DNA from: Candidatus Dojkabacteria bacterium | Lineage (GTDB): Bacteria > Patescibacteriota > Dojkabacteria > J137 | NCBI GenBank assembly: GCA_030834985.1 | Contig: JAUQWV010000006.1 | Location: forward strand, 76,168 to 140,167 | Length of the DNA: 64,000 nt | Reading direction: 5' to 3' | Shown: positions 6,814 through 64,000 of the stretch, piece by piece | Position numbering within the stretch: position 1 is the stretch's first letter | How the letters are laid out: each line of letters opens with the position of its first letter | Translations under genes and position numbers: made by a program | Notes under the pieces: model-generated | Told to the model about the DNA's origin: nothing | What the model saw: the letters and a program-made list of their open reading frames with translations, nothing else | Database searches by the model: none

Positions 6814-6897
6814 ATCTTAATAAAAAAATTTTAATTCACTATCTATTGTAAACGCCTTTTAAGACAAGTTAAAGCCTTTTAGGAAAGATTTATTCGT

Positions 6898-10959: not shown

Positions 10960-12192
10960 TTAAGCATTTACTAACTGTCCAACTTGGAAGATGGGCAGGT
11001 AAACCGCAATAGCTAAGAAGGCAACTAGCCCTCCTGCAATAACCATAATAAGAGGCTCCATAAGCTTTGTCAAATTATCAGCAAGCTGCTGAACCTCTCC
11101 CTCGTAAAACACAGACATATCTTCTAAAATCTTATCTAATTTTCCAGATTCTTCTCCTGTTGCTATTATTCTAATTAAAACCACAGGGAATGCAACATTT
11201 TCATTATATTTTGCCAGTGCTAAAGATACAGTTGAACCTTTAACAATCTCTTGTTTAGAATTTAAAATTACATTTCTAAAAACTTTGTTCCCGGAAGCAT
11301 TACCTACAATTTCAATGGCTTCAATTATTTGAATTCCACTTTTAGCAAGCATTGCTGTTAACCTGCAGAATTGCGCAACTTCAGACTTTTGAATTAATTG
11401 CCCAAAAATAGGCATTTTTAGTTTTAACCTATCAATAAACTCAGCTCCTTTAGGAGTAGAGTATGCATATTTGTATAATCCGAATATTGAAATAGCTAGT
11501 ATTACAACAATAATCAATGTTGCTATATTATTAAAACTTTCCCCAAGGCTTACTAAAAATTGTGTTACTGCTGGTAGCTCTGCTTGCCCTAAACTTTGGT
11601 ATAAATCCTTAACCTGAGGAATCATTACTGTAATCATTAAAAATACCACCACTATAATTGCAATAAATATTATGGCAGGGTAGATTAATGCACCAGTAAT
11701 TTTACCTTTTAAATTCTTACTTTTTTCTAAATCAATTGCGATTTTTTCCAACATTTCATTTAAATTTGCACTTTGTTCTCCTGCTGCAAGCAAATTTAAG
11801 TGTACGTCAGAAAGTATTCCGCCTTCTTTTTGAAATGATTCTGCAAGGCTAGTACCTGCTTCAATACTTTTATATATATTTTGAAGCTTTAGTTTTAAAG
11901 ATTTTTTTTCAGTTTGCTGAACTAGAATATCAATTGCCTGAATGATTGGAATATTAGCACCAACCATAGTAGAGAGCTGTTTTATTAAAACTACTTTATC
12001 ATTTAAAGGTAGGCCTCCAATGTCTGATTGAAAAACTCGACTTACATCGAAGCCGATATTCTCTGTTATAGATATAATTGTAAAATCCTGACTTTGAAGA
12101 AATTTAACTAGATCATCCTTGCTTGAGGATTCTTTTTCTCCTTCAATCCTTTGTCCGGTACTTGTTGTAACTACGTATTTAAAATATGCCAT
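10960..12192 (-). CDS. pilC: type IV pilus inner-membrane platform protein PilC (GspF family)
   Basis: 410 aa with two GspF repeats and three TM segments. Adjacent to pilB/pilT. Confidence 0.85.
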   Translation of the reverse strand: MAYFKYVVTTSTGQRIEGEKESSSKDDLVKFLQSQDFTIISITENIGFDVSRVFQSDIGGLPLNDKVVLIKQLSTMVGANIPIIQAIDILVQQTEKKSLKLKLQNIYKSIEAGTSLAESFQKEGGILSDVHLNLLAAGEQSANLNEMLEKIAIDLEKSKNLKGKITGALIYPAIIFIAIIVVVFLMITVMIPQVKDLYQSLGQAELPAVTQFLVSLGESFNNIATLIIVVILAISIFGLYKYAYSTPKGAEFIDRLKLKMPIFGQLIQKSEVAQFCRLTAMLAKSGIQIIEAIEIVGNASGNKVFRNVILNSKQEIVKGSTVSLALAKYNENVAFPVVLIRIIATGEESGKLDKILEDMSVFYEGEVQQLADNLTKLMEPLIMVIAGGLVAFLAIAVYLPIFQVGQLVNA

Positions 12193-13770: not shown

Positions 13771-13835
13771 AGTTGAATAAACAAACTTATTACACTAAAT
13801 ATTTAACTATATTTTGAAATCACTTACAAGGAGTT

Positions 13836-45947: not shown

Positions 45948-46999
45948 TATTTTAAGATAAGATCTTTAACTTGATGTTTTTCAAGCAAGTCTACCCTGTC
46001 CATCATCTTTGAAATTCCAACCGCAACAGAGATAGATGCATTTTGAGAAATTTTAAATGGAACCTTTAGTTTTTGAGAAAAGTATTTATCAATATCTTCG
46101 ATAAGTGCACCGCCGCCCGAAAGGAAGACGCCATTATTTATAAGATCAGAAAGTATTTCGGGCGGCACACTTTCGATAGCTTCTTTTAAACTTGTAGCAA
46201 TCTTTTCTAATACAGGAAGTAACGCCTCTGTTACTTCAGGTTTAGATATCTTAGTTGATTTTGGCAATCCGCTAATAAGATCTTGTCCGCTAATTTCAAT
46301 CTGCTTATCTGGGTTTTTGGAAAGTGCACTAGCATGTTTAATTTTGATATCTTCTGCCTGCTTTAAGCCTATTAGCAAATTATACTTATTCTTTATGTAA
46401 TCAACTATCGCCAAATCCATTTCATCCCCTGCTATTCTTATTGTATTGTCTTTAACTATGCCTCCAAGAGAGATTAATGCAATATCTGTTGTACCTCCAC
46501 CAATATCAACAATCATATTGCCGGTAGCAGAATCAACTTCTAGACCGGCGCCAATTGCAGCTGCCATAGGTTCTTCAACAATGTAGACCTTTCTGGCACC
46601 GGCCGACTTAGCAGAATCTATAACAGAATTTATCTCAACTTCAGTAATAGTCGTAGGTACACCTATAACTACTCGAGGTTTTAGTATTCTATTAAACACT
46701 GTCGATTTAACATTAGACGTTTTATTAATAAAATATCTAATTAAAGCTTCAGTAGCATTAAAATCAGATATCACTCCATTTTTTAATGGCTGAACAGCTT
46801 TTATATTTGAAGGTGTTCTTCCTATCATTTTTCTAGCATCATTACCTACAGAAAGAACTTTTCCAGTCGTACTATTTATTGCGATAATTGATGGTTCTTT
46901 AATGATATCTTTCTTGCCTTTAATAAGAACGCGGATATTAGCAGTTCCTAAATCAATAGCAATATCTTTTGAAAATCTAGCTAAAAAGTTATCTAACAT
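45947..46999 (-). CDS. mreB: rod-shape-determining actin homologue MreB
   Basis: IAIDLGTANIRV phosphate-1, DIGGGTTDIA phosphate-2, LSGGGALI adenosine motifs. Confidence 0.9.
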   Translation of the reverse strand: MLDNFLARFSKDIAIDLGTANIRVLIKGKKDIIKEPSIIAINSTTGKVLSVGNDARKMIGRTPSNIKAVQPLKNGVISDFNATEALIRYFINKTSNVKSTVFNRILKPRVVIGVPTTITEVEINSVIDSAKSAGARKVYIVEEPMAAAIGAGLEVDSATGNMIVDIGGGTTDIALISLGGIVKDNTIRIAGDEMDLAIVDYIKNKYNLLIGLKQAEDIKIKHASALSKNPDKQIEISGQDLISGLPKSTKISKPEVTEALLPVLEKIATSLKEAIESVPPEILSDLINNGVFLSGGGALIEDIDKYFSQKLKVPFKISQNASISVAVGISKMMDRVDLLEKHQVKDLILK

Positions 47000-49375: not shown

Positions 49376-50443
49376 ATGAAAGTTCACTCTCCATTCATAT
49401 ACCTATTACTGCTTAGTTTCTTAGAACAAAGATTAAGCATCCTACTATTATTAGCTATTAATGCGATATCCCTGTCTGTATTCAAAACAATAAGACCAAC
49501 CTTACGCTTAACTGCTCTATTTTTTATCTTTATCCTAACCAAATATATACTTGAATTAAATTTATTACAGTCGATGTTCACAACGCTAAACAGTACGTTG
49601 TCACATAGTCTTACCAGCCAAATTACTGATCTATTCGATACAAATCACGCACAATTTTTAATCGGGATTACAATAGGAGGCTCTAATGTAGATTTAAATC
49701 AAGATCTAAAAAATCTATTTAAAAAGTTTAATCTACTTCACTTAATAAGTGTATCAGGAGCAAATTTTATTTTAATTAATGAATTAACTAATCCACTAAA
49801 AAAATATCTAGGATACTATCGAATATTGATAACCAATTTAATAGTAAGCTCTTACTATATATTTGCCATAGGTTTTAGCAATCTACCGGCTTCAAGAGCG
49901 TTTTTATTTTCCAGCTATGATAATATAGCCGCGCTTTCCGGAAGACCCATTAAGTTTTTTAACAAACTGCTTTTGAGCTTATGCGTTATTTCTTATAGCA
50001 GCCCAACATTGTTATTCGAGCGATCTTTAATTCTAAGCATTGGATTCACTCTACTATACAAATCATTTGGGCTACCTAAAATAAAAACGCTCTTCGATAA
50101 CGAACTTCTAAAATTGGCTACAATTTTTATTATCTCAGCTACTATCTTCGGGAACGAAAATCCCGACTTTTTAGCCAACTTACTATTATCAGTTATCTAC
50201 CCAATTTTGTTTATAGGTACGTTTACTATATACATAACCTCTATTATCGGCGCAGAATTATTAGCAGACGTAACTTATAGAGTTATTAATATAATTCTCG
50301 ATTTCATATTTGAATATTTAGGAGCTCTTTCAAGTACCGAAAATACGTATTTACAGACGATGCTGTTCTTAGCTATTTTGGCTATCTTTGTTTATAAAAT
50401 TGTAAAAAATAAATATCGTGGATATCAGAATATTGCTCAATAA
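49376..50443 (+). CDS. comEC: ComEC/Rec2 competence-channel domain (membrane part). It may continue from a 56-aa upstream fragment in another frame (49245-49415).
   Basis: ComEC competence-domain motif FNLLHLISVSGANFILI. Polytopic membrane protein. Confidence 0.7.
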   Translation: MKVHSPFIYLLLLSFLEQRLSILLLLAINAISLSVFKTIRPTLRLTALFFIFILTKYILELNLLQSMFTTLNSTLSHSLTSQITDLFDTNHAQFLIGITIGGSNVDLNQDLKNLFKKFNLLHLISVSGANFILINELTNPLKKYLGYYRILITNLIVSSYYIFAIGFSNLPASRAFLFSSYDNIAALSGRPIKFFNKLLLSLCVISYSSPTLLFERSLILSIGFTLLYKSFGLPKIKTLFDNELLKLATIFIISATIFGNENPDFLANLLLSVIYPILFIGTFTIYITSIIGAELLADVTYRVINIILDFIFEYLGALSSTENTYLQTMLFLAILAIFVYKIVKNKYRGYQNIAQ

Positions 50444-51278
50444 TGTTGTAATTATTTTGCTTATAGCACTACTTCCGCTCGCTATTGATAAAGTAGTACT
50501 ACTATTTAATAGCGACCAGATAACGTTTCTAAATATTGGACAAGGAGATTCAATTCTTATTTGTAACCAATTCAAAAAGTGCGGTCTTATAGATACAGGC
50601 AAGCAAAATTCTGTGATTAACAAGATCAAAAAATACACCAGTCCTCCATTAGAGTTTCTTATATTAACTCATCCTGATTTAGACCATACAGGTAAAACTT
50701 TAGAGATACTTAAAGAGATAGGTGTTAGAAGAATATTCGTTAATGAAAGCTCGAAAGCGCGAGAAATTATTAAATCTATCCAACAGGTGCAAGTCCGCGC
50801 TTTCGAGCTCAAATCACATAACGATTTCATATTTGGAAACTATAAATTCGACATATTCTGGCCTCTTCCAGACACCGAGCTAGATTCTCTAGACAGCAAC
50901 GAAACATCTATTAGTATAGTTTTACACAACCAAAATCACCGCTTCTATTTAGCCGGCGATTTGGGTACAAAATTAGAAGATGAAAACCAAAAACAATATG
51001 GCTTAAATTCAATAACAGTAGCTAAATTAAGCCATCATGGTAGCAAGAACTCCTCCAGTTTATCCTTATTAAAAAGCCTTGCTCCAGATGTAGCTATCTT
51101 TTCAGTTGGAAAAAATTCCTATGGCCATCCTAATATACGGGTAATTGAAGATTTAAATATTCTAAAAATCCCATTTTTAAGAACAGATCTAGATGGAGAT
51201 ATACAAATCAAAATTAAAGAGCAAAAGCTCCAAATCGATACTGAAAAAAGCAAAAAATCATATATAATATTGAATTAA
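50418..51278 (+). CDS. comEC: ComEC C-terminal metallo-beta-lactamase-fold domain, separate ORF in +1 frame overlapping the previous one by 26 nt
   Basis: ITFLNIGQGDSILI and LILTHPDLDHTGK (HxHxDH MBL motif). SHHGSKNSS downstream. Confidence 0.7.
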   Translation: MDIRILLNNVVIILLIALLPLAIDKVVLLFNSDQITFLNIGQGDSILICNQFKKCGLIDTGKQNSVINKIKKYTSPPLEFLILTHPDLDHTGKTLEILKEIGVRRIFVNESSKAREIIKSIQQVQVRAFELKSHNDFIFGNYKFDIFWPLPDTELDSLDSNETSISIVLHNQNHRFYLAGDLGTKLEDENQKQYGLNSITVAKLSHHGSKNSSSLSLLKSLAPDVAIFSVGKNSYGHPNIRVIEDLNILKIPFLRTDLDGDIQIKIKEQKLQIDTEKSKKSYIILN

Positions 51279-51660: not shown

Positions 51661-51870
51661 ATGTTAAAAAAAGTATTAAATTTACCAAAAAAGTTAGCTA
51701 ATTTTATAAGAGGCGTCTTTGCTGAGCTTAAATTTGTCCAATGGATAAAAGGCTCTGATGTATTAAAATACACTGTATTTTTAATGCTTTTTTTAATATT
51801 CGGATCACTAGCAATAATGCTAATAGATAGAGTATTTTTATTAATAAGAGAATTAATACTACCAGTATAA
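51661..51870 (+). CDS. secE: preprotein translocase subunit SecE. Start chosen at an internal Met, because the ORF-track start at 51637 overlaps tRNA-Trp.
   Basis: Single C-terminal TM helix. tRNA-Trp-secE-nusG synteny. Confidence 0.75.
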   Translation: MLKKVLNLPKKLANFIRGVFAELKFVQWIKGSDVLKYTVFLMLFLIFGSLAIMLIDRVFLLIRELILPV

Positions 51871-52454
51871 TGGAAGAGGAAAACACACAAACACAAGTTG
51901 TAGAAAATAACGACAAGCTTAAATGGTACATCGTTGCAAGTTCATCTGGAAAAGAAAATAAAACGGCTGAGCTTATCAAACAAAGAATTAAAGCTAATAA
52001 CTACGAAGAGAAGATTACAGATGTAGTTGTTCCTACTCAAGAGAAAATTGTAATTAAAAGAGGTAAAAAACAAACAGTAGAAGAAAGAATTTTTCCCGGC
52101 TACATTTTAGTAAAAATGCTTCCTGGTGATGAAACATTCTACTTAATCAGAAATACAGAGGGAGTAACTGGATTCGTTGGTACTACCGCTAAATCTAAAG
52201 TCCCTACTCCACTAAACCCTAAGGAAGTGGAAGGAATCTTAGCATTTACCCAAGTAAAACAATCGCCAGTATTTGATGCAAAATATCAAATAGGAGAAGC
52301 TGTAAAGGTAGTTGAAGGACCTTTCAAAGATATTGTTGGAACAGTTAGGGAAATTAATGAAGCTAAAGGTCAGGTTACAGTCTTACTTTCAATGTTCGGG
52401 CAAGATGTGCCTGTTCAGTTAGACTTTTTACAAGTATCTAAAATATCAAATTAA
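51870..52454 (+). CDS. nusG: transcription termination/antitermination factor NusG
   Basis: NGN domain and KOW motif GEAVKVVEGPFKDIVGTVREIN. Confidence 0.9.
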   Translation: MEEENTQTQVVENNDKLKWYIVASSSGKENKTAELIKQRIKANNYEEKITDVVVPTQEKIVIKRGKKQTVEERIFPGYILVKMLPGDETFYLIRNTEGVTGFVGTTAKSKVPTPLNPKEVEGILAFTQVKQSPVFDAKYQIGEAVKVVEGPFKDIVGTVREINEAKGQVTVLLSMFGQDVPVQLDFLQVSKISN

Positions 52455-52464
52455 CTAAAAGAAT

Positions 52465-52890
52465 ATGGCTAAAGAAATCGTAAGTGTACTAAAACTTGAA
52501 TTGCCAGCAGGAAAAGCTAATCCCGCTCCTCCAATTGGACCTATTATTGGTCAAGCAGGTATCCCAATTCAACCATTCTTAACAGAATTCAATGCAAAAA
52601 CTGCAGCTATGGGCAACGATATTATTCCCATTATTGTGCAGATTTTTAAAGACAGAAGTTACAAAATAATTTATAAACAACCTACTATTTCCGGTATGCT
52701 TAAGAGCAAATTAAAGCTAGAAAAAGGCTCTGCAACTCCAAATAAATCTAAAGTTGCTAAGATAAAAAGAGCTGACCTAGCTGAGATTGCAGAAAGAAAA
52801 CTACCTGATTTAAACACCAAGAAAAAAAGTTCTGCAGTTAAAATTGTAGAAGGTGTTGCCAGAAGCTTAGGAATAGATGTAATAGATTAA
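52465..52890 (+). CDS. rplK: 50S ribosomal protein L11
   Basis: VLKLELPAGKANPAPPIGPIIGQAGI. Confidence 0.95.
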   Translation: MAKEIVSVLKLELPAGKANPAPPIGPIIGQAGIPIQPFLTEFNAKTAAMGNDIIPIIVQIFKDRSYKIIYKQPTISGMLKSKLKLEKGSATPNKSKVAKIKRADLAEIAERKLPDLNTKKKSSAVKIVEGVARSLGIDVID

Positions 52891-52911
52891 TTTAAGAAAG
52901 GTAAGACTACT

Positions 52912-53586
52912 ATGAAGAAAAAAATTGAAATTGACACAAGCAGAACCTACACATTAGAAGAGGCAGTAAAATTACTGCCAGAGCTTTCTTTAAGCAAGTT
53001 TGTTGGTTCAGTTGATGTTGATATAGTTCTAAATCTAAAAGAGAAACAAAAAAAGGAAAGCATCAGAGGAAGCGTGACTCTACCCTTTAGTATGGGTGAT
53101 GAAAAAAAAGTTGTTGTGATTTGTGAAGAAAAAGATGAAAAAGCTGCACTAGCAGCCGGTGCTAATAAAGCAGGTTTAAGTGTGGTTGACGATATTGCAA
53201 ACGGAAAAATCGACTTTAATGTTGTAATTGCAACACCAAGTGTTATGGGACAATTAGTAAAGATTGGTAAGATTTTAGGTCCAAAAGGCTTAATGCCAAA
53301 TCCAAAGAACGGAACAGTAACTACCGACGTAGATAAAGCTGTAAAAAGCTTTAAGGCTGGCCGATTAAACTTTAAGTCAGTACCTGATCAAGGAGCAATT
53401 AGACTAAAAGTAGCTAAATTAGATATGCCTGTTGAAAATATACAGGAGAATATCATTGCTTTATTAAAAGTAGTTTTTGCTGAAAGTAAAAAATTATCAT
53501 CTAATCCATTCAAAAAAGTTACAGTATCCCCTACTATGGGTGCTGGATTAAAGTTAGATGTTAATGATATAATCAAATACGTTTAA
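52912..53586 (+). CDS. rplA: 50S ribosomal protein L1
   Basis: 224 aa. KILGPKGLMPNPKNGTVT motif. Confidence 0.9.
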   Translation: MKKKIEIDTSRTYTLEEAVKLLPELSLSKFVGSVDVDIVLNLKEKQKKESIRGSVTLPFSMGDEKKVVVICEEKDEKAALAAGANKAGLSVVDDIANGKIDFNVVIATPSVMGQLVKIGKILGPKGLMPNPKNGTVTTDVDKAVKSFKAGRLNFKSVPDQGAIRLKVAKLDMPVENIQENIIALLKVVFAESKKLSSNPFKKVTVSPTMGAGLKLDVNDIIKYV

Positions 53587-53599
53587 AATTGAATAACGT

Positions 53600-53738
53600 T
53601 TAAGACAGCAGGTAGCAATTTTAATTGCGTAAATCCAGCCGAGACGCCAAGATAGACCAAAGTAAGATAATTTACTAAGTATTTATAGGCGCTCTCAAAA
53701 AGAGCGCTTTTGTTTTATTAAATATTAATTAACCAAAA
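53600..53738 (+). promoter_or_regulatory. rplJ leader region with attenuator/terminator-like hairpin (GCGCTCT caaaa AGAGCGC + TTTTGTTTT at 53689-53716)
   Basis: 139-nt untranslated gap between rplA and rplJ. Position corresponds to the classical L10(L12)4-binding autoregulatory leader. Confidence 0.55.
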
Positions 53739-54275
53739 ATGGCCAAAACAAAAAAAGAAAAGGTGGCCCTAAAAAATGAATATGTAAGCGAATTACAAAA
53801 GGCTAAAGCGCTAGTAATAGTAAAGCCTTCAAAGCTTACACCAAATGAGGCCAATGAGTTTAGAAAAGAACTTTATGATTTTGATGCAAAATTCAATATC
53901 GTAAAAAATACTATCTTTACTCTTGCATTAGCAGAAGCAAATTTACCAGCTATTAAAGAACTAGAAAAAGGTGAACATGCAGTTTTAGTTTTAAGTGAAG
54001 ATATTGTAAGTCCTAGCAAATCTTTGAAAAAGTTTATAGAAAATACTACTAGTAAGGATGGAGAAACAAAAGTTGAAATTGTTGCTGGAATAATGGATGG
54101 TGCTCTACTAACAAAAGAGCAAGTAAGTGAATTGGCCGATATGCCAAGCTTCGATGGAAGCATTTCAATGATATTAGGCATTCTTGATAATGCTATGTCT
54201 GGAATAGTTAATGTGCTTGAAGATCCTACAAGATCTTTTGCAACTATTTTAGACCAGGCGTTTAAACAAGACTAA
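53739..54275 (+). CDS. rplJ: 50S ribosomal protein L10
   Basis: 178 aa. Conserved rplJ-rplL pair. Confidence 0.9.
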   Translation: MAKTKKEKVALKNEYVSELQKAKALVIVKPSKLTPNEANEFRKELYDFDAKFNIVKNTIFTLALAEANLPAIKELEKGEHAVLVLSEDIVSPSKSLKKFIENTTSKDGETKVEIVAGIMDGALLTKEQVSELADMPSFDGSISMILGILDNAMSGIVNVLEDPTRSFATILDQAFKQD

Positions 54276-54302
54276 TTAATTTTATATTTTATTTATCAGA
54301 CA

Positions 54303-54701
54303 ATGGCTGCAACCGACAAAGTACAAAAAATCGTTGATAGCATCAAAGAATTAACAGTTGTTGAAGCTTTTGAACTAAAGAAAGCTTTAGAAGAAACTTT
54401 TGATGTAAAAGCGAGTGCTCCAATGGCTATGGCAATGCCTATGGCTGGAGCTGCAGCACCTGCAGAGGCAGCAGAAGAAAAAACAGAATTTGATGTTATT
54501 CTTGCTGATGCTGGCGCAAATAAAATTGGTGTGATCAAAGTTGTGAAGAATATCACAGGCTTAGGCTTAAAAGAAGCTAAAGATCTTGTGGATTCTGTAG
54601 CATCAGGTCCAAAACCAATTAAAGAAGGTGCTAAGAAAGAAGAAGCAGAAGATATCAAAAAACAACTTGAAGCAGAAGGTGCTAAAGTTGAAGTTAAATA
54701 A
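54303..54701 (+). CDS. rplL: 50S ribosomal protein L7/L12
   Basis: N-terminal dimerisation helix, Ala/Pro-rich hinge, C-terminal domain [23 protein letters not shown]. Confidence 0.95.
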
Positions 54702-54724: not shown

Positions 54725-54766
54725 AAGCAGGTTAGTTTATATTAAGGTAAACAACCTGCTTTTTTA
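54725..54766 (+). terminator. intrinsic terminator after rplL
   Basis: AAGCAGGTT...AACCTGCTT stem followed by TTTTTT. Confidence 0.75.
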
Positions 54767-54776
54767 ATTAATATAT

Positions 54777-55511
54777 ATGGATATTATTTGGAATTTGCTA
54801 CTACAAAGAGGCATGAGCCCGGTAGAAATTGATCTATACAAGGAGGTATTTATTATCTTAATAATGCTTCCTGTTGTTACTACAATTGTAGGTATCGCAA
54901 GATATGTAATAGGAACTAGAACTCTTGGCATGTTTACACCTGTGATAATAACTTTCCTGCTCTATGAGTTTGGTAGAATTGGAACCGAACAAGATATTCT
55001 TCGAGCACTTAAATATGGAATTATTTTCTTTTTAATTGTTCTAATTGCAAGTTGGCTCAGCTACAAAATATTAAAACGTGTCCGAATGAACTATATCCCT
55101 AAGCTCACATTAGTGACCATCGGTGTAATAGTCGCGTTATTCTTGTCATTTATTGTTTCGGGCATATTAGGATTTACAGGGCCAGTATTTATAAACAAGT
55201 TTACTTTGGTTATTTTAGCTATATTAGTGGAGCCGTTTGCATCAGCCTTTGCCAGAAAGAGTTTTAGCTATGGCGTCTCCTCTGCTATTGATACATTCAT
55301 ACTTTCAGCGTTTTGTTACATAATCATATCACTAACTAAGGTACAGGAATTTGCAGAGGCTAACCTACTAGTAATTCCTGTACTAATAATTGTGAATATT
55401 TATTTAGGCAGATTTACAGGCTTACGCTTAAGTGAGTATTTAAGGTTCCGAAATATATTATTTTCAGACAACAAGGCGAGTGATAATGATACAAATAAGC
55501 AAAGTAATTGA
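54777..55511 (+). CDS. seven-helix (7TM) integral membrane protein. Candidate stand-alone homologue of the 7TM module that accompanies RimK-like ATP-grasp / QEGLA-type systems.
   Basis: Seven hydrophobic ~20-aa segments in 244 aa. Polar C-terminal tail. 3' end overlaps the next gene by 32 nt. Confidence 0.5.
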   Translation: MDIIWNLLLQRGMSPVEIDLYKEVFIILIMLPVVTTIVGIARYVIGTRTLGMFTPVIITFLLYEFGRIGTEQDILRALKYGIIFFLIVLIASWLSYKILKRVRMNYIPKLTLVTIGVIVALFLSFIVSGILGFTGPVFINKFTLVILAILVEPFASAFARKSFSYGVSSAIDTFILSAFCYIIISLTKVQEFAEANLLVIPVLIIVNIYLGRFTGLRLSEYLRFRNILFSDNKASDNDTNKQSN

Positions 55512-56934
55512 AAACAGAAAATTAGTACTAGGGCGTAATGAACGATATCTAAAATACATTAGACCGCATAACTTAAGCCGTGCTACAAAAATTGCAGATG
55601 ACAAAATTCTTACAAAAAGGATTTTGAATAAAGCTGATATACCCGTCCCCAAATTAGTTAAAGTGATAAAAGATAGAAGCCAATTAAATAGCTTTGACTT
55701 TGCTTCATTACCTAAAAGTTTTGTAATAAAACCTGTTAAAGGAGTTCGTGGAGGCGGAGTGACAATCATATATAATCGTGCAAAAGACGGTAAATGGATA
55801 GGATCAAGTAATAAAAGATTCTCGGAAGAAGATTTAAGATCCTTAATACAAGATATTTTAGATGGCCGGTACTCTCTTTTTAATGAACCAGATAGAGTTT
55901 TGATAGAAGAACGAGTACGTCCGCATAAATCTTTTAAATACTATTCGTACAAAGGCGCGCCCGATGTACGGATTATTGTGTTTAATTCTATTCCAATTAT
56001 GAGTTATATACGCTTGCCTACCAAAGAATCTAACGGGCGCGCCAACTTAGATCTAGGAGCAATAGGTGCAGGTATTGATATGGCAGTTGGAAAAACAACC
56101 GGAGCTATAATTGGAAAATCTACCCCTATAGAATATGTCCCAAATACCAATTTAGCCTTATCTGGATTAAAAATTCCATATTGGGACCGAATACTAAGAT
56201 ATGCAGTTGAAGCAAGTAAATTAACAAAACTAGGTTTTGCTGCTATCGATTTTCTAATTGATGAAGATAAAGGCCCACTAATTGTAGAGTTAAATGCCCG
56301 ACCAGGATTATCCATTCAGCTGGCAAATGAAGACGGTCTACGATGGAGATTAAAAAAAGCATCTGATATACGCGTAAAAACTACTGAGCGTGCTGTTAGA
56401 CTAGCTAAAGATCTATTCGGAGGCGAAATTGAAGAAGAAATTGAAAGTATTTCAGGTAAACAAGTTATTGGCTTACTTGAAGAAGTAAAAATATTTAATT
56501 TAGATGGTGAAAGTTTTGAACAGGTAACTGCCAAGATCGATACTGGAGCTTCGTTTACCTCGTTAGATACTGAGCTAGCTATAAAGTTGGGCATGCAGGA
56601 AGTTATTGAATTTGCAAAACCGATTCTAGAATCTATCCCTAAAAACTTTGAAACAGTAGATGAGCTTAAAAAATACTCTGCTGATAACCAACTAGAAGAA
56701 CGGTTAGAGCAACATCCTCTAATTGTTGATACTGCTATAATAAAATCTAGTAATGGCTTGGATTACAGAATTATAGTACCTATGAAGTTTCAGATTTCAG
56801 GTCTTGATGTCGAATCAAATGCTACTATTGCTAATAGAACTAACCTTAATTACAAACTAATTCTTGGAGAAAAAGATCTTAAGAAATTTCTAATAGATCC
56901 TAGTAAAAAATTAATATTAAAGCTTAAAAATTAA
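55480..56934 (+). CDS. Fusion of a RimK-related ATP-grasp amidoligase (alpha-L-glutamate-ligase-related type) with a C-terminal retropepsin-like aspartic-protease domain (RimB/COG4067 type)
   Basis: N-terminus NERYLKYIRPHNLSRATKIADDKILTKRILNKADIPVP and ATP-grasp core. C-terminus VIGLLEEVKIFNLDGESFEQVTAKIDTGASFTSLD, with DTGA at nt 56539-56550. Confidence 0.65.
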   Translation: MIMIQISKVIENRKLVLGRNERYLKYIRPHNLSRATKIADDKILTKRILNKADIPVPKLVKVIKDRSQLNSFDFASLPKSFVIKPVKGVRGGGVTIIYNRAKDGKWIGSSNKRFSEEDLRSLIQDILDGRYSLFNEPDRVLIEERVRPHKSFKYYSYKGAPDVRIIVFNSIPIMSYIRLPTKESNGRANLDLGAIGAGIDMAVGKTTGAIIGKSTPIEYVPNTNLALSGLKIPYWDRILRYAVEASKLTKLGFAAIDFLIDEDKGPLIVELNARPGLSIQLANEDGLRWRLKKASDIRVKTTERAVRLAKDLFGGEIEEEIESISGKQVIGLLEEVKIFNLDGESFEQVTAKIDTGASFTSLDTELAIKLGMQEVIEFAKPILESIPKNFETVDELKKYSADNQLEERLEQHPLIVDTAIIKSSNGLDYRIIVPMKFQISGLDVESNATIANRTNLNYKLILGEKDLKKFLIDPSKKLILKLKN

Positions 56935-56936
56935 TC

Positions 56937-58436
56937 ATGGATTTTATTATACAGCAGGCTGTTGGATCTGATATTAAAGTGTTACTTGAGCTAAAAGATC
57001 AGGTTAGACTGCACACATACAAAGAATTTATCCCAGATCTTAAGTGGGAAGATATTAAGTACAACGAAACTTATGATGCAAGGGCGCAAAAGATAATAAG
57101 CCAATTTCAGGAAAAAAAAGTTTTCATCTTTTGCGCCAAAGATAATTCTCAAAATATTCTAGGCTATATAAAAATTATCCACAGAGGTTCCATAGTAGAA
57201 ATACAGGATTTATTTATTATCCCTACTGCTCAAGGAATGGGAATTGGATCACAACTTATGATTAAAGCTTGGGACTTATTTAAAGACCAGGATTCTGTAT
57301 GGCAGCTTAAAGTTAATGTACTCGAAAATAATACAAAGGCAATTGAATTCTATAAAAAACACGGCTTTGCTCCAGATATGGGCAGAATTTTCTACTATAA
57401 AATTGGAGATAATAAAAAAGCTAATACAATTAAAATGTATAAATTAAACGAGAAAACTACATCTCAGTTTTTACAATCGGCAAGGCTTATTTTAAATAAT
57501 TTTGTCGAGAACAATATTCCTATAATTGAAGTTGACCCATTATCAAATAGTTATATTGTATCTGTAAATGGCAACTATATTTACTCTCGAGGTATACTAA
57601 CACCACTCAATACTCTATCGGCATCTCATTTAGCAAATGATAAATTAACTAGCAAAAAAATCTTACAGTTTTTTAGAATTCCTACCCCTGATTATTTATG
57701 TTTTAGAAAGAAAGAAAATACAGATATAAAAGAAATTAGACTAAAGCTTGAAGAATTTTTACAAAAACATAGCAGGATTATCGCTAAACCACAAAACGGG
57801 CTTAAAAGCAAAGATGTATTTTTGAATATTCAAAATGTTAATCAGGCGCTGGAAGCTTATAATCATATTATTAATAAAGAATATAAAGGCGTTTTATTTG
57901 AAAGCTTTGCTGAAGGTGATGTTCATAGACTGCTCTTAGTTGACGGGACCCTTATAGCTGCACTAAGACGTGAAAAAGGCTACATTATTGCCGATGGTAT
58001 TAGCACACTTAATCAATTAATAACTCAAAAAAATCAGTATTTAGATCATGGAGGTAGAAATGTAGGCAGAATTAGAATTGATGAGAAATTGAATGCTGTA
58101 CTTAAAGATCAAGGATTTGATTCGTTAGAAGATGTACCTGCAAAAGATACTAAAGTATTTACAGAAATAGATTTTAGCAACCTTGAAACTGTTACAGAAG
58201 TTACTGACATTGTAAGCCCAGCATTAACACAAAAGCTATCTGGCTTAGCAAATAAGATCGGCCTTGGGCTAACAGGAATCGACGTTATCTCCACAGATAT
58301 TTCTGATGAGGGTAAATGCAGTATTATTGAAATCAATAAAGAGCCAAGCATCGATTTTCATCATTATCCCGATTACGGAGAAGCTAAAGATGTTGCAGGA
58401 GAGATTGTCAGGGCAATAATCAGGAAATACTCTTAA
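56937..58436 (+). CDS. GNAT N-acetyltransferase fused to ATP-grasp amino-acid ligase domain (architecture like Ngg, the N-acetylglutaminylglutamine synthetase)
   Basis: GNAT motif A IQDLFIIPTAQGMGIGSQLM...YKKHGF (aa 1-160). ATP-grasp core HLANDKLTSKKIL...IIAKPQNG...VLFESFAEGDVHRLLLVDG...ADGISTLNQLI...IIEINKEPS. Confidence 0.65.
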   Translation: MDFIIQQAVGSDIKVLLELKDQVRLHTYKEFIPDLKWEDIKYNETYDARAQKIISQFQEKKVFIFCAKDNSQNILGYIKIIHRGSIVEIQDLFIIPTAQGMGIGSQLMIKAWDLFKDQDSVWQLKVNVLENNTKAIEFYKKHGFAPDMGRIFYYKIGDNKKANTIKMYKLNEKTTSQFLQSARLILNNFVENNIPIIEVDPLSNSYIVSVNGNYIYSRGILTPLNTLSASHLANDKLTSKKILQFFRIPTPDYLCFRKKENTDIKEIRLKLEEFLQKHSRIIAKPQNGLKSKDVFLNIQNVNQALEAYNHIINKEYKGVLFESFAEGDVHRLLLVDGTLIAALRREKGYIIADGISTLNQLITQKNQYLDHGGRNVGRIRIDEKLNAVLKDQGFDSLEDVPAKDTKVFTEIDFSNLETVTEVTDIVSPALTQKLSGLANKIGLGLTGIDVISTDISDEGKCSIIEINKEPSIDFHHYPDYGEAKDVAGEIVRAIIRKYS

Positions 58437-59298
58437 AATATTCATCCAAATACTTTAAGACAGTAAAATCATGTCTAAATGCTGGGGCAGGATTTACTTC
58501 AAACAGATATATTTTTGAATTTTTATTAGAAACTACAACATCTACACCTGCTACTTGTAAATTTTTTACCTTTGCAGCTTTTACTGCAATTTCTGATATT
58601 TCAGGAAAGTCCTCTGGTTTTAAATACTCTACTTCTGCTCCTAAAGATACATTGTTTCTAAACTCAGCAGAATCTTTATTTCTAACTCTTTTTTTCACTA
58701 CTGCTACTTTTTCGCCGAAAACTACAAATCGATAATCAAAATCATTAGGAATCAATTCTTGAATAAAATAGTATTCATCTTTTAGCTCTTCTTTAATCTT
58801 TACATAGTCATCAAATGAATTAAGCAGATAGACACCTTTCCCTTCATTGCCTCTAGTAGCTTTTAACACTGCAGGGTAACCGCCAAGCTTTTGTATATGG
58901 GATTCTAAATTCTCATCAAGAAGTCTTTTATGAATAATAAATGTTGCAGGTAAATTCAGGCCATTCGTAATTAATAAGTAGTGTTGGTGTATTTTTGAAC
59001 CGTAATTTGAAAGTCCTACTGCACTGTCAGCAAATTTTTTTGAATGTTTGATTAAGTGTTTAGCTAAAGTGGAAGCTATATCAGGGCGTTTTTCCCACGT
59101 TCTGAAATAGATGAAATCGTAATCTAAAATATTTACACCATCAATTGTTACAGTAATAGGATCTCTAAAATCAAAGATTACATCATCCAGATAACCTATT
59201 ATATAAGTATTTCCTGTTTCCTGCCCGTACTTATTAAAGTAATCTATAAAGTCAGTATCGTAAGGCTGTCTTCCTGCTTTCAGTACAAGTATTTTCAT
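58420..59298 (-). CDS. RimK/LysX/GshB-family ATP-grasp ligase
   Basis: KIHQHYLLITNGLNLPAT, YPAVLKATRGNEGKGVYLL, YFIQELIP, DYRFVVFGEKVAVVKKR, LQVAGVDVV, LFEVNPAPAF. Confidence 0.7.
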   Translation of the reverse strand: MKILVLKAGRQPYDTDFIDYFNKYGQETGNTYIIGYLDDVIFDFRDPITVTIDGVNILDYDFIYFRTWEKRPDIASTLAKHLIKHSKKFADSAVGLSNYGSKIHQHYLLITNGLNLPATFIIHKRLLDENLESHIQKLGGYPAVLKATRGNEGKGVYLLNSFDDYVKIKEELKDEYYFIQELIPNDFDYRFVVFGEKVAVVKKRVRNKDSAEFRNNVSLGAEVEYLKPEDFPEISEIAVKAAKVKNLQVAGVDVVVSNKNSKIYLFEVNPAPAFRHDFTVLKYLDEYFKSIS

Positions 59299-59323
59299 AG
59301 TATCATTGTAATTATTAGTATCT

Positions 59324-61432
59324 ATGAATTATATTACAAAAGGTATGAGCTTAGAAGCTATAAATCCTCAAGAAAGAAGCCCTGAATTAATTCCAATAGA
59401 AAGAGCTCAGCTAGAAATAATCCAACTTGGTGAAAATATAGCTAAAGAAATAAAGAATCTGAAAGAAGCTTCTAAAGTAATGATCATAATCACTGCCATA
59501 TTTAATAATAACCTTGATTTCTCTAATCCTGAATTAGTAAGCTTAGAAATTGATAATGTAAGAAAATCTCTATTAGAAATATGCGACAATGCCGAAATTC
59601 CTGAGCCGGAAGCGATCTTGCAGCTAAAAGAAATCATACAAAGTTTTGATTTTGGATCTCCTTTAGATTTAAAAGAACTTATATCTAAGATTGACAAGCT
59701 GTTGTTAGAAGTCATTAAAAATGAATCTATTCCCTTAACAGCAAAGAGCAAATTCTTCCAGAAAATTAAAGGTATTTGTGAAGTAAATCATCAAAATAGT
59801 GTTGCCAATAAAATTCAAATGACTGAATCAACAATATCATTATCTCAAGATATGCCGCTTCCAGTTAATGTTAGCTATATTTTAAATCCCGAGATGATTT
59901 CAGAAAGAGATGCTGCGCTAAGACGATTAAAGAATAGTATACAGACTCAGGAATCACTACTATTTCAATACTCTGCAAGTGAATACATTGAAAAGATCCA
60001 TGGAACTGATCTAATTGATGCTGAAGAGGAGTATTACAGACAGTCAGAGTTTTATAACTCTAATAAACCAGAGCTAGTAGAAAATACAGTCCCTAAAAAC
60101 AAAAAGGAAGGCTACCCTCTTGAACTCATAGTGATTCTTAAAGGCGGGCCTAAAGAAGTTACTTTTCGCCAACTGAATATGGCTAAAATACAATTATTAA
60201 GAATCTATCGTGAATTTATTAATACCTTAATAACTACAGAAATCATTGATAATAGAATTATTGAAGAACAATTATCAGAACTTGAAAATTCTTTACGAAT
60301 AGGAATAGATGAAACCTCAGAAGCTGAAATTAAAAGACGAAAGCAAACCAGACGAATCTCATTATTTGACATGCTACATATGGGTACCGTTGCAGCAAAT
60401 AAAGTTAACCCAAATATGACTTCAGAAAATCAAGTTCCACTATCGCAAGAAGTTTTAGATTATACGGGAGGAACAAAGCCAGCAAATACTTCTAGAGAGC
60501 TTTTTATAAGTAAATTAACCAAAGAGCAAAGAAGAAGGTTTGAAGTGTTAGAGTCTTTAAAAGACTATCAGTTTGATGAGACTCAAGATGGAATTCCAAG
60601 TCGGATTTATAGAAGATTCATAGAAAAACTTGGAATAGCTACCCCACTTGAAGATGTAGATGAACAATTGGAATTATCTGAAAAGAAAATACCTAACAAT
60701 AAATTTAAAACATACACTATTAAAGTTAGACCTGGTGGCACAGTAGCGGTCGACCATGGGTTTAGAACAATTTTAATTCCCAGAACTTGGAAACCTAAAT
60801 TATCAAGTATTTTAATATCTATCCAACATGAGATTGGCCACGTTGCACAACAATTATCACGAGATCAGAGCTTTCTGCCTGGTGTTAATATTTTAAGCGG
60901 ACTTGGCAGATCAGGCACATTAGCCGAAGCTGGAGCAATAAAATCTGAAGCCTTAATGGCAGAACTTCTAATTAAAGAACGCGAAATTAATACTTATCAT
61001 GTAAGTATTGTAAAAGGAATTATTGAAGGAAAAAACTATTGGGAACTAGTTGAAATGGTATTAAAGACTCTTTTTGAAAGGAATATTAGAAATAATGAAA
61101 ATAAATCAAAAGAAGAGCTAGCCAGAACTGCTATTAAAACTGTCAATAGAGCCTACTCCTCTTTAGGCGCAATGGGAAACAAGACAGATCCACATGGACG
61201 ATATCCGACCTATGCTGGATTTCTATCATATACTTACCAAGGCTTGCCAGAGTTTAGCCAGCAGCCATTTTATATAAGTGGTATTCCTGCACACAGAATA
61301 GATCTCCAAGAGTTTATGCCACAACCTCAAATTGAAGGTGTCCCAATTACAGAAGAACTAATAGCAGAAATTATAATAGATGCAGCCTACGAAGTCTTAG
61401 CAGAAAATGGGATTATAAATACAGCTAATTAA
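59324..61432 (+). CDS. 702-aa protein with C-terminal HExxH zincin-like metallopeptidase domain (possibly DUF1704/MATCAP/QEGLA-family-like); N-terminal ~480 aa unassigned
   Basis: ISIQHEIGHVAQ (HEIGH at nt 60827-60841). Candidate third ligand in KSEALMAE ~40 aa downstream (nt 60941-60964). Confidence 0.5.
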   Translation: MNYITKGMSLEAINPQERSPELIPIERAQLEIIQLGENIAKEIKNLKEASKVMIIITAIFNNNLDFSNPELVSLEIDNVRKSLLEICDNAEIPEPEAILQLKEIIQSFDFGSPLDLKELISKIDKLLLEVIKNESIPLTAKSKFFQKIKGICEVNHQNSVANKIQMTESTISLSQDMPLPVNVSYILNPEMISERDAALRRLKNSIQTQESLLFQYSASEYIEKIHGTDLIDAEEEYYRQSEFYNSNKPELVENTVPKNKKEGYPLELIVILKGGPKEVTFRQLNMAKIQLLRIYREFINTLITTEIIDNRIIEEQLSELENSLRIGIDETSEAEIKRRKQTRRISLFDMLHMGTVAANKVNPNMTSENQVPLSQEVLDYTGGTKPANTSRELFISKLTKEQRRRFEVLESLKDYQFDETQDGIPSRIYRRFIEKLGIATPLEDVDEQLELSEKKIPNNKFKTYTIKVRPGGTVAVDHGFRTILIPRTWKPKLSSILISIQHEIGHVAQQLSRDQSFLPGVNILSGLGRSGTLAEAGAIKSEALMAELLIKEREINTYHVSIVKGIIEGKNYWELVEMVLKTLFERNIRNNENKSKEELARTAIKTVNRAYSSLGAMGNKTDPHGRYPTYAGFLSYTYQGLPEFSQQPFYISGIPAHRIDLQEFMPQPQIEGVPITEELIAEIIIDAAYEVLAENGIINTAN

Positions 61433-62444
61433 TTCTAATGCTTCTTTTGTAAGCGCCTAAGTTTTTTATAGCTATTTCTAATCCTCTAGCTACACAAGTT
61501 AAAGGATCCTCCGCTACATATGTAGGAATTCCTATAGCTTTTGTTAGGAACTCATCGATACCTTTTAACATTGCAGTCCCGCCACTTAGAACCATACCAT
61601 TATCTATAATGTCGCTCATTAACTCTGGAGGTGTTTTTGCTAAAACTTTTTTTACCGAGTTAGCTATATTATCTAAAACTTCTCTGGTTGGTTCTACAAA
61701 CTCACCTGAGCCTATCTTAATAATATCTGGCTGCCCTGTTTTTGAGTTCTTTCCTTTGATCTCAATTTCAATAGGATTTTTAACCGGCATAGCTGAAGCA
61801 TATTTTATTTTTAGCTCCTCAGCTGTGACTTCACCAACAATAAGATTATGTTTCCGTTTTAAATAGTTAATAATTGCCTCGTTAATTACATCTCCTGCAC
61901 CTCTGTAAGATTCATATGCTACTACCCCATTTAACGATAAAACAGCTACTTCGGCAGTGCCGCCGCCGAGATTAACGATTAAGTTTCCAGTTGATTGATT
62001 AATTGGAAGCCCGGCACCGATGGCGGCGGCTACAGGCTCCGGTAAAATATATATTTTTCCGGCACCTACTGATGAAAGCGCCTGCGTTAGAGCACGCTCT
62101 TCTACCGAAGTTAATCCTGCAGGCGCTGCTACCATAACCTCAGGCTTTGCTAAAACAACGCCACCCAATACTTTCTTAAAAAACCTCTTTAGCAAAGCCT
62201 CTGCCAGCCTATAATTTGAAATTCCTCCATTCTTAAGCGGTCTTTTAGACTCTACTCCTTCTGGAACTTTGCCAAGCATTAATTTAGCATCTTCTCCTAT
62301 AGCTAAAACTTTCTTTTCTTTGGGAGAAATAGCAACTACTGTAGGTTCTTGTAAAACCACTCCCTTACCTTCGACTATCATCACACAATTTGCTGTACCA
62401 AAGTCGATTGCAATCTTCTGCGGAGTAAATAATTTGTTAATCAT
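61425..62444 (-). CDS. second MreB-family actin homologue (paralogue)
   Basis: IAIDFGTANCVMIV, NLGGGTAEVAV, LSGGTAMLKG. 339 aa. Convergent with the previous gene and overlapping it by 8 nt. Confidence 0.8.
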   Translation of the reverse strand: MINKLFTPQKIAIDFGTANCVMIVEGKGVVLQEPTVVAISPKEKKVLAIGEDAKLMLGKVPEGVESKRPLKNGGISNYRLAEALLKRFFKKVLGGVVLAKPEVMVAAPAGLTSVEERALTQALSSVGAGKIYILPEPVAAAIGAGLPINQSTGNLIVNLGGGTAEVAVLSLNGVVAYESYRGAGDVINEAIINYLKRKHNLIVGEVTAEELKIKYASAMPVKNPIEIEIKGKNSKTGQPDIIKIGSGEFVEPTREVLDNIANSVKKVLAKTPPELMSDIIDNGMVLSGGTAMLKGIDEFLTKAIGIPTYVAEDPLTCVARGLEIAIKNLGAYKRSIRIN

Positions 62445-62521
62445 TTTGAATGGCTTTAAAAAGAAACTTAGCTTATAATCACCTTAATTATAGCCTTAAT
62501 TTATACTTTTTAATTAAATTT

Positions 62522-63121
62522 ATGAAAACAGGATTACATCAAAGAACACTTGTGTTGATTAAGCCCGATGCTGTACAGCGAGGACTAATTGGCGAAATAT
62601 TATTAAGGTTTGAAAGAAAAGGTTTAAAGATAACAGCAATGAAAATGGCTTGGGCAGATAAAAAGATGGCTATGGATCACTATTTCTGGTCTAAAGAGGA
62701 AAAAGAAGCCAGCGGCAATAGAACAATTGCTGTTCGTGAAGAAAAAGGACTTTCAATTGAAAAAACTGCTATCGAATACGCCGAAATGACTCAAAAGAAA
62801 TTAATTGGTATGTTGATGGCTGGCCCTACAATTGCATTAGTAATCGAAGGAGCTCATGCAATTGAACATGTAAGAAAGGTTGTAGGCCACGGAAGCCCGT
62901 TAAATGCTGATGTCGGTACTATTAGAGCTGACTTCACAATTGATTCTTATATTGTTGCTGACGAAGCTGACCGTGCTGCAAGAAATCTTGTACACGCATC
63001 ATCCTCTATTGATGAAGCAGAAAGAGAAATTAAAGTATGGTTTAAAGAAGAAGAGATTTCTGATTATGAACTGGCCATTGAAAAAATATTGTACAGTAAG
63101 GATTGGGATGCAGCTGAATAA
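62522..63121 (+). CDS. ndk: nucleoside diphosphate kinase with ~50-aa internal insertion. The ORF-track start at 62450 is probably too far upstream.
   Basis: RTLVLIKPDAVQRGLIGEILLRFERKGLKI and the active-site His region NLVHASSS (equivalent to NxxHGSD). Confidence 0.7.
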   Translation: MKTGLHQRTLVLIKPDAVQRGLIGEILLRFERKGLKITAMKMAWADKKMAMDHYFWSKEEKEASGNRTIAVREEKGLSIEKTAIEYAEMTQKKLIGMLMAGPTIALVIEGAHAIEHVRKVVGHGSPLNADVGTIRADFTIDSYIVADEADRAARNLVHASSSIDEAEREIKVWFKEEEISDYELAIEKILYSKDWDAAE

Positions 63122-63125
63122 GAAT

Positions 63126-64000
63126 TTAAGACTCAACTAATTCAAGTAATTTTATATTCTTAACTATATTAAATAAACTTTCTAAAAGTTCAGATGGCTC
63201 GCCTACTTTAAAATGTTCACTATCTGTATGTCTGCCGCCCCTCTCTGGAAAGCTTACGATTACAGTATTTCTTTCCTTAGATGGTAAATGAAGTCCTAAA
63301 CTGCATTGAAATGAGTTAGCTAAAGCATAAAGATCCTTATCTTTGCCTTTTAGTGCTGTTGTCAAAGAATTATCATCTTCAATCAACTCTGCTTCACCAT
63401 AAGAGCTTTCAACTGCATCTAATATTGTAGATTTTATTTCTGGATCTACCTGTGAATAGTAATGATCTGCATTGTCAGGTTTAACTGAATACAAAAGACT
63501 GTCTTCTTCAATGATTCCTAATTCTCTACATAATGCTGCAAAAGTACCATATAAATCCCGAAGCTTATAATCTGATAAATTGCCCGGAGTAAAAGCCATA
63601 TAAATATTTCCATCATCAAAATATGCGTTTATAGTTAACCTAGCAAAATATGGTATTTCTTTAAAATAAGAGCTTAAAAACCTCTGAATTTCAGCGGAGG
63701 TATAGCCCTGTCTTTTTACATTTTTAAAAAGTATTGTTTTACTTTGCATAATTTCATTCACAACACCTCCGCGTAAAGTGCCTGTTGGTTCAAGACTTAT
63801 GGCCGCCGGTATGCTTATTCGTTTATAAAACTTCTTCTGACCGGGATTTGCAAGTTCTTCATCTGTTGAAATAGTCACTACCGGCGGCCCAACATTAGCC
63901 CTATAAAGTCTATAAAGCAATACAATAATTACTGCTACCTGAGTAAGCATGTCATTTGCTCCCCTGCCAAAAATATATTCGTTATTTTCACTATCTATTT
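63126..64000 (-). CDS. hypothetical protein, partial (frame open to the window edge; N-terminus lies outside the window)
   Basis: No minus-strand stop between 63951 and 64000. No motif recognised. Confidence 0.4.
   Translation of the reverse strand, partial: IDSENNEYIFGRGANDMLTQVAVIIVLLYRLYRANVGPPVVTISTDEELANPGQKKFYKRISIPAAISLEPTGTLRGGVVNEIMQSKTILFKNVKRQGYTSAEIQRFLSSYFKEIPYFARLTINAYFDDGNIYMAFTPGNLSDYKLRDLYGTFAALCRELGIIEEDSLLYSVKPDNADHYYSQVDPEIKSTILDAVESSYGEAELIEDDNSLTTALKGKDKDLYALANSFQCSLGLHLPSKERNTVIVSFPERGGRHTDSEHFKVGEPSELLESLFNIVKNIKLLELVES

Follow-up and report, generated by a model that had tools for sequence, protein, structure and literature searches.

A Patescibacteria gene cluster of ATP-grasp ligases, a 7TM protein and peptidases as a candidate counterpart of the Rlo and Rim systems

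Here we describe a compact cluster of five genes, g1 to g5 (54777-61432), in a 64-kb stretch of DNA from an uncultured Candidatus Dojkabacteria bacterium (contig JAUQWV010000006.1; hereafter the window, to whose positions all coordinates refer unless another locus is named). We think it somewhat probable that this cluster represents the Rlo and Rim class of systems in Patescibacteria, namely a set of template-independent ATP-grasp ligases with dedicated trimming peptidases and a product of the poly-alpha-glutamate type. This interpretation draws on the domain identities of the encoded proteins, on catalytic motifs that are intact, on the predicted cytoplasmic location of g2 to g5 and on gene associations that recur in other genomes. 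A literature search found no description of a Patescibacteria version, and we consider as new here the reversed ligase-protease fusion, the seven-transmembrane (7TM) protein without a transglutaminase domain, the modular cargo of ligases and peptidases and the MATCAP-like family of g5.

The five open reading frames (ORFs), their coordinates and their strands agree with those of the initial annotation, which had also correctly recognised a genome of the candidate phyla radiation (CPR). The genes are as tightly packed as it had claimed, with one amendment concerning the start of g2: g1 and g2 overlap by 32 nucleotides (nt) if g2 starts at a GTG codon and by 26 nt if it begins at the ATG at 55486, which is the more likely true start because orthologues begin with MI(Q/S)(I/L)SK. 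Two nt separate g2 from g3, the convergent genes g3 and g4 overlap by 17 nt, a divergent gap of 25 nt lies between g4 and g5, and g5 overlaps the following mreB gene by 8 nt. Searches with Pfam and NCBIfam profile hidden Markov models bore out four of the five domain calls made earlier, namely a 7TM protein without transglutaminase, a ligase-retropepsin fusion, a GNAT-ligase and a RimK-type ligase, so that g1 to g4 fall into the expected families, whereas the expected placement of g5 in DUF1704/TIGR02421 did not hold.

The first two genes form the conserved core of the cluster (module A). The gene g1 (54777-55511, + strand) encodes a RloB-type multi-pass 7TM protein of 244 amino acids (aa). 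It matches the Pfam family PF14402 (7TM_transglut) with E = 2.3e-17 and 63.8 bits (cutoff 25) over profile positions 53-247 of 248, and its match to the NCBIfam RloB model is confined to positions 312-506 of 508, which is the C-terminal 7TM part and from which we conclude that g1 is without the inactive transglutaminase domain. Hydrophobic segments, about seven of them, were found in g1 alone, and because g2 to g5 contain none, these four proteins are predicted to be cytoplasmic. The gene g2 (55480-56934, + strand) encodes a RloC-type ATP-grasp ligase followed by a C-terminal retropepsin of the RimB/RloA type, with a length of 484 aa from the GTG and 482 aa from the ATG. Its ligase domain (residues 24-293, ~nt 55549-56358) matches ATPgrasp_ST (1.3e-60, 205.4 bits, cutoff 31.4) and TIGR02291 (6.4e-77, 258.6 bits), the latter under the hypothetical-equivalog cutoff of 314.2, and judged by these profile scores g2 is a clear relative, not an equivalog, of the TIGR02291 family. 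The retropepsin domain (residues 331-479, ~nt 56470-56916, with the DTGA motif at 56539-56550) matches PF05618 (4.5e-9, 36.8 bits, cutoff 27), and its profile also matches the RloA crystal structures 9g58 (4e-10) and 9g59 (2.6e-9). Among 22 homologues K82, E268-x-N270 and D352-T-G-A355 are invariant, and so are R428 and R451; together with the catalytic D352, these two arginines align with the RloA structures, and the spacing between them, 23 residues, is like that of RloA R114/R137. Neither a hydrophobic segment nor a signal peptide was found in g2.

The same three families make up the rloABC operon of P. aeruginosa, which encodes the secreted retropepsin RloA, the inactive-transglutaminase 7TM protein RloB and the ATP-grasp protein RloC (PMC12239564, mBio 2025). 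This operon and the RimBK hybrid (PMC11957791) are the closest characterised relatives of the cluster, and the initial annotation had overlooked both. In P. aeruginosa, where the rlo genes contribute to hypo-osmotic tolerance and cell shape, a triple rloA1-3 mutant displays osmotic, shape and biofilm defects that are suppressed by deleting rloB or rloC. RloA cuts runs of at least eight glutamates and depends on R114 and R137 both to cleave poly-E and to function in vivo (PMC12239564). Because the loss of rloB or rloC relieves the rloA1-3 defect, these results fit a product of the ligase and the 7TM protein that needs to be cleaved. Similar to this operon, g1 corresponds to the 7TM part of RloB, and g2 combines a ligase of the TIGR02291/ATPgrasp_ST type with a RloA-like retropepsin. 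The cluster differs from rloABC in that its 7TM protein has no transglutaminase domain, in that two further ligases and a gluzincin are present, and in its host, which belongs to the Patescibacteria, while 96% of the reported RloB hits lie in Proteobacteria (PMC12239564).

In addition, the cluster resembles the Rim systems, in which RimB, a retropepsin endopeptidase specific for poly-alpha-glutamate, trims the tails made by RimK and stimulates RimK (PMC11957791, JBC 2025). The common theme is a cytoplasmic ATP-grasp alpha-L-glutamate ligase that is paired or fused with a poly-alpha-glutamate retropepsin tuning the ligase, and g4 is itself a member of the RimK family. In contrast to the RimBK hybrid, where RimB lies N-terminal to RimK (PMC11957791), the order in g2 is reversed, with the ligase preceding the protease, and the ligase belongs to the RloC/ATPgrasp_ST clade and not to true RimK. 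Moreover, the cluster has no RimA, and the 7TM partner that is obligate for g2 is absent from Rim systems.

A third point of comparison is the conserved triad of a TIGR02291 ligase, a 7TM-transglutaminase protein and DUF1704 that was reportedly described by Iyer, Abhiman, Burroughs and Aravind in 2009. All three families occur together in the loci L001, L009 and L013, and two of the three in the window, where g3, g4 and g5 take the place of the DUF1704 member and ligase and retropepsin form one protein; throughout the Patescibacteria, the 7TM proteins lack the transglutaminase domain. The initial annotation had read the cluster as an elaborated ligase/7TM/zincin triad with trimming proteases. 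The general idea stands, but g5 is not the DUF1704 zincin of that triad, since it has no PF08014 match and carries HExxH, and since L001 contains g5 together with a genuine PF08014 MATCAP.

To place the cluster in a wider context, genomes were scanned for g2-encoding loci, which yielded 360 loci, and 80 of these, from species-representative genomes, were kept for a survey spanning Dojkabacteria, Moranbacteria, Paceibacteria, Woesebacteria and Roizmanbacteria. Fusions like g2 are abundant, with more than 3,000 homologues under 1e-20, many of them carrying the source name Candidatus Dojkabacteria, and PF05618 was detected in almost all of the 120 best. In 78 of the 80 loci the gene directly preceding the g2 homologue is a g1 homologue, and the other two loci are truncated by contig ends. 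The remaining genes are less regular companions of this pair: g4-like genes were found nearby in 29 loci and g3-like genes in 20, and g5 was absent from all 80 genomes. An upstream rplL is restricted to the 42 loci of the Dojkabacteria type, and the 38 loci of other classes have no rplL nearby.

The space between g2 and mreB was surveyed in the 26 Dojkabacteria loci that have both rplL and mreB, the mreB homologue in these syntenic loci carrying PF06723. The intervening slot measures 14 nt to 6.5 kb and is empty in ten of the 26 loci (14-74 nt). Where it is filled, the cargo consists of a RimK-like gene alone, of g3-like and g4-like genes, of a ligase-fused MATCAP domain, or of a GT2 glycosyltransferase gene with MATCAP and two paralogous proteins. 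Outside the Dojkabacteria, a g3- or g4-like ligase lies no more than 5 kb downstream in 21 of 34 loci. Because the slot varies while the pair persists, we regard g1 and g2 as the conserved core and the remainder as modular cargo. The complete five-gene order was found again in L004, L006 and L090, and a variant in which g3 has no GNAT domain occurs in L095. The five-gene arrangement is thus not due to chance, yet the cluster is a combination of two recurrent modules and not one fixed unit. The earlier suggestion that the five genes are selected together as a unit therefore does not hold beyond g1 and g2, and the position after rplL is a lineage-specific synteny of the Dojkabacteria and no pointer to L7/L12 as the target.

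One of the cargo types deserves a separate description. In L001 (and also in L009 and L013) two paralogous proteins of 260 and 266 aa (6479-7261 and 8036-8836 of L001; 27% identity, E = 3e-12) flank the GT2 glycosyltransferase of the MATCAP-bearing cassette. We considered whether they might be FemAB-like aminoacyl transferases, but neither protein has a match in Pfam, in NCBIfam or among PDB sequences that would support this.

Module B begins with the accessory ligases g3 and g4. The gene g3 (56937-58436, + strand, 499 aa) encodes an N-terminal GNAT domain (~nt 57060-57374; Acetyltransf_1, 8.6e-14), which keeps the acetyl-CoA motif Q-x-x-G-x-G as QGMGIG, fused to an ATP-grasp domain that by its profile matches is of the cyanophycin-synthetase/Ngg/GshF type (~nt 57462-58424). 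Residues 176-496 match positions 155-472 of 862 in the cyanophycin synthetase model TIGR02068 (6.2e-46, 156.8 bits, cutoff 850), the Ngg model TIGR03103 is matched with 1.4e-34 and 119.6 bits (cutoff 569), and the nearest solved structures are the CphA1 G-domain 7lgm (2.7e-24), CphA2 and GshAB. The gene g4 (58420-59298, - strand, 292 aa) encodes a RimK-family ATP-grasp ligase, with matches to PF08443 (RimK; 6.3e-20, 72 bits, cutoff 21) and to TIGR00768 (3.3e-28, 98.8 bits, under the cutoff of 143.4); its nearest solved structures are the RimK entries 5zct, 4iwx and 7qys (~1e-13). E465-x-N is present in g3 and E267-x-N in g4, and the E-x-N Mg site is thus kept in all three ligases of the cluster.

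The last gene, g5 (59324-61432, + strand, 702 aa), belongs to a very rare and previously unassigned family that is distantly related to the tubulin carboxypeptidase MATCAP. The protein consists of a helical N-terminal region of ~430 aa, which has no counterpart in MATCAP, and a C-terminal domain that is a divergent MATCAP-like gluzincin (~nt 60686-61429). The zinc motif of MATCAP/TMCP/DUF1704 proteins is HExxxH with a third ligand in EEG (PMC10499314). Neither element is present in g5, which has HEIGH instead, that is HExxH (residues 502-506, nt 60827-60841), and a putative third zinc ligand, E535, within AEAG. The first His and the ligand Glu lie 33 residues apart in g5 and in the L001 MATCAP alike, and g5 and MATCAP have the gluzincin carboxypeptidase fold in common. 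In profile searches g5 had no Pfam match, no PF08014 match at E <= 0.1 and no TIGR02421 match, and none of 20 scanned family members matched PF08014, whereas the genuine MATCAPs of sister loci score 75-122 bits with this model. An ordinary DUF1704, M48 or M3 protease was considered and rejected on the basis of this lack of Pfam matches, of an M3 model match (0.008) that lies far under its cutoff and of the absence of any PDB sequence match. A full-length AlphaFold model of g5 built from 4 sequences was unusable (predicted local distance difference test score, pLDDT, 49), and the C-terminal domain was modelled instead with 20 sequences; a Foldseek search of g5 against the PDB gave no significant match, and a profile-based repeat search for g5 homologues found nothing new. 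In addition, g5 diverges much faster than its neighbours. The g5 proteins of L004 and L090 share 64% and 38% identity, respectively, with the one described here, despite 76-80% identity for g2 and 79-81% for mreB in both loci, and the divergence is strongest in the N-terminal 430 aa. These two deeply diverged forms could reflect fast evolution or replacement in situ.

The gene g5 is linked to the other components by its more distant homologues (23-25% identity), which adjoin retropepsins and RimK-type ligases in L093, L097/L098 and L099. In L093 (3990-9482) a tight operon encodes a retropepsin, an M29 aminopeptidase, a g4-like RimK, a glutathione-synthetase-like ATP-grasp protein and the g5 homologue, and the aminopeptidase adds to the set of trimming enzymes. 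This contig is unrelated and of low GC content, and genes for a peptide deformylase and a sortase come after the operon. The order in L097/L098 is g5 homologue, retropepsin, g3-type ATP-grasp and g4-type RimK, and in L099 a g2-like fusion gene, the g5 homologue and a RimK gene follow one another, the stop of the first overlapping the second. A module of retropepsin, RimK-type ligases and g5-type gluzincin is thus supported by three of the five informative independent contexts. A further connection is provided by L055 (9980-12325) and L060 (9986-12325), each with a protein of ~780 aa that joins a RloC-type ATP-grasp domain to a degenerate retropepsin, in which DTGA has become DTSR, and to a genuine PF08014 MATCAP domain (~122 bits). 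Going by this domain composition, the peptidase module has been swapped on the same ligase, which suggests that retropepsins and MATCAP-type enzymes act on the same product. At another g5-bearing locus, L091, the 224-aa and 475-aa neighbours of the g5 homologue were examined as a possible hidden 7TM-plus-fusion pair, and no such match was found.

Based on these comparisons we propose that the ligase domain of g2, together with g1 at the membrane, would polymerise an acidic, alpha-linked chain, most likely poly-alpha-glutamate, with g1 serving as an anchor or regulator of the ligase or perhaps passing the product across the membrane. The retropepsin of g2 would then cut long acidic runs internally, as RimB and RloA do, thereby limiting chain length and allowing the product to be recycled inside the cell. 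In module B, g4 and the ATP-grasp domain of g3 would attach more residues to a carboxylate group, the GNAT part of g3 would cap an amino group by N-acetylation as in the Ngg architecture, and g5, as a metallocarboxypeptidase, would strip C-terminal residues singly in the manner of MATCAP/TMCP shortening poly-glutamate. The reactions may follow this order, and the chain might be free or else bound to the envelope or to a protein. The chemistry put forward in the initial annotation, in which two proteases trim a tail that is N-acetylated, extended at its C-terminus or both, is likewise plausible.

Several observations weigh against this proposal. Glutamate is proposed as the monomer by extrapolation from what the partner peptidases cleave and not from the biochemistry of RloC-type (TIGR02291) ligases. 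All three ligases score below the curated NCBIfam cut-offs, g2 for TIGR02291, g3 for Ngg/CphA and g4 for RimK, and by these scores they are relatives, not equivalogs, of the respective families. RloA is secreted, whereas the g2 retropepsin is fused to a cytoplasmic ligase and has no signal peptide, so that the topology differs and cleavage here must be intracellular. Furthermore, the g5-family members in L091 and L101 have no ligase nearby, and the window contains neither an acidic-tailed ORF nor a precursor peptide that could serve as an encoded substrate.

The strongest of the alternatives, which we regard as possible although rather unlikely, is that the cluster tags a specific cytoplasmic protein, the ligases extending its C-terminus and the peptidases resetting it, with S6, L7/L12 or the adjacent MreB paralogue as candidates. 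Modification of RpsF by RimB/RimK sets a precedent for a ligase-retropepsin pair of this kind (PMC11957791), the structures nearest to g4 are S6-glutamate ligases, g2 to g5 are all predicted to be cytoplasmic, and rplL and a second mreB paralogue flank the cluster in all of the Dojkabacteria loci that were examined. However, g4 reaches just 50.6 bits with the S6--L-glutamate ligase equivalog PRK10446 (cutoff 331), rpsF was not identified in the window, and nothing in the cluster points to RpsF as the target. L7/L12 here ends in KVEVK and has no acidic tail. The adjacency to rplL and mreB is limited to Dojkabacteria and does not extend to the g5-bearing operons of L093 and L097, which are without both genes, and the near-obligate partner of g2 is a membrane protein and not a ribosomal component. 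We do not favour a ribosomal or MreB target because of this lineage-specific adjacency, the membrane partner and the lack of a window ORF with an acidic C-terminus.

More doubtful is a small product, either a di- or oligopeptide acetylated at its N-terminus or a cyanophycin-like compound for storage or osmoprotection that resembles N-acetylglutaminylglutamine amide (NAGGN), with g3 as the key synthetase and the peptidases responsible for turnover. This idea is encouraged by the domain order of g3, which is that of Ngg (GNAT, then ATP-grasp), by the proximity of its ligase to the ATP-grasp domains of CphA1, CphA2 and GshF and by the tie of the related rlo operon to osmotic stress tolerance (PMC12239564). 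Against it, g3 falls far short of both cut-offs, and no AsnO-type amidotransferase is encoded in the cluster. The match to CphA1 covers the G-domain region alone, without a Mur-ligase-like M-domain and with 499 aa compared to ~870-930 aa. The modest share of core-pair loci with g3-like genes (20 of 80) and the loss of the GNAT domain in L095 are further objections, and an endopeptidase needing runs of at least eight glutamates would have no role on a dipeptide. Finally, we consider it very improbable that the slot between g2 and mreB is simply permissive and took up g3, g4 and g5 as lineage-specific insertions that form no common system, their tight packing only reflecting CPR genome streamlining. 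The empty or differently filled slots, the absence of g5 from all 80 representative genomes and its fast divergence would agree with this, but the observed cargo is all of one theme, ATP-grasp ligases and MATCAP-type peptidases. Moreover, three unrelated contexts with differing gene orders combine g5 homologues with retropepsins and with g3- and g4-type ligases, including the overlap with a g2-like fusion gene in L099.

The cluster is bounded upstream by a terminator-like hairpin followed by six U residues (54725-54766, + strand) between rplL and g1. Its predicted folding energy is -17.3 kcal/mol (z = -4.66), and 0 of 200 shuffled sequences fold equally well; a generic terminator scan missed it because the stem is bulged, and consensus scans for promoters and terminators gave counts not above those of shuffled sequence. 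The downstream edge of the variable slot is the ORF of the second mreB paralogue (61425-62444, - strand). No Rfam family and no tRNA was found inside the cluster, and the GC content is uniform over the window at ~33%. The preceding secE/nusG-rplKAJL block (51870-54701) is without a following rpoB-rpoC. In most bacteria rpoB-rpoC come after a block of this type; in Dojkabacteria the genes after rplL are instead those for the 7TM protein, the ligase and MreB. Between rplA and rplJ, a gap of 150 nt gave no Rfam match to the L10 leader.

The window holds two MreB paralogues, and the other one (45947-46999, - strand) lies directly upstream of a PBP2-type transpeptidase gene (44103-45947), which is the canonical arrangement. 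A ComEC-like competence domain (49376-50443, + strand) and a metallo-beta-lactamase domain (50418-51278, + strand) are encoded by overlapping ORFs and not by one ComEC, which could reflect gene splitting, a frameshift or a true two-gene organisation. Type IV pilus genes at 5764-6813 and 10960-15620 (- strand) encode PilM, two T2SSE-family ATPases and neighbouring membrane components. Beyond mreB, the product of ndk (62450-63121, + strand) is extended by ~50 aa at its N-terminus and matches the NDK domain in two stretches, and the adjacent 274-aa ORF (63126-63950, - strand) has no Pfam match.

The Rlo and Rim systems were characterised only in 2025, and the present cluster bears on both. A near-invariant pair of a ligase-retropepsin gene and a 7TM gene has been kept in minimal genomes that retain little that is dispensable. 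The fusion of the protease to the ligase argues that the protease cleaves what the ligase itself makes; in the Pseudomonas work this is the central point still lacking proof. In addition, the ligase-MATCAP fusions of L055 and L060 and the position of g5 homologues beside RimK-type ligases link bacterial MATCAP-like enzymes to poly-amino-acid ligases, a connection that mirrors the eukaryotic pairing of tubulin polyglutamylases and deglutamylases, and g5 defines a new family of putative metallocarboxypeptidases. Both g2 and g5 are soluble and could be practical reagents for finding the product of RloC-type ligases. Tentatively, and with considerably more reserve than for the proposal above, we suggest that several classes of Patescibacteria may possess a membrane-coupled, non-ribosomal machine for the synthesis and trimming of acidic peptides, composed of the 7TM protein and a ligase-retropepsin that trims its own product, that would be core to envelope or osmotic physiology and customised by swappable cargo, that g5 may found a family of deglutamylase-type gluzincins whose N-terminal region selects the substrate, and that the product may be a capped, poly-alpha-glutamate-like polymer or tail undescribed in bacteria.

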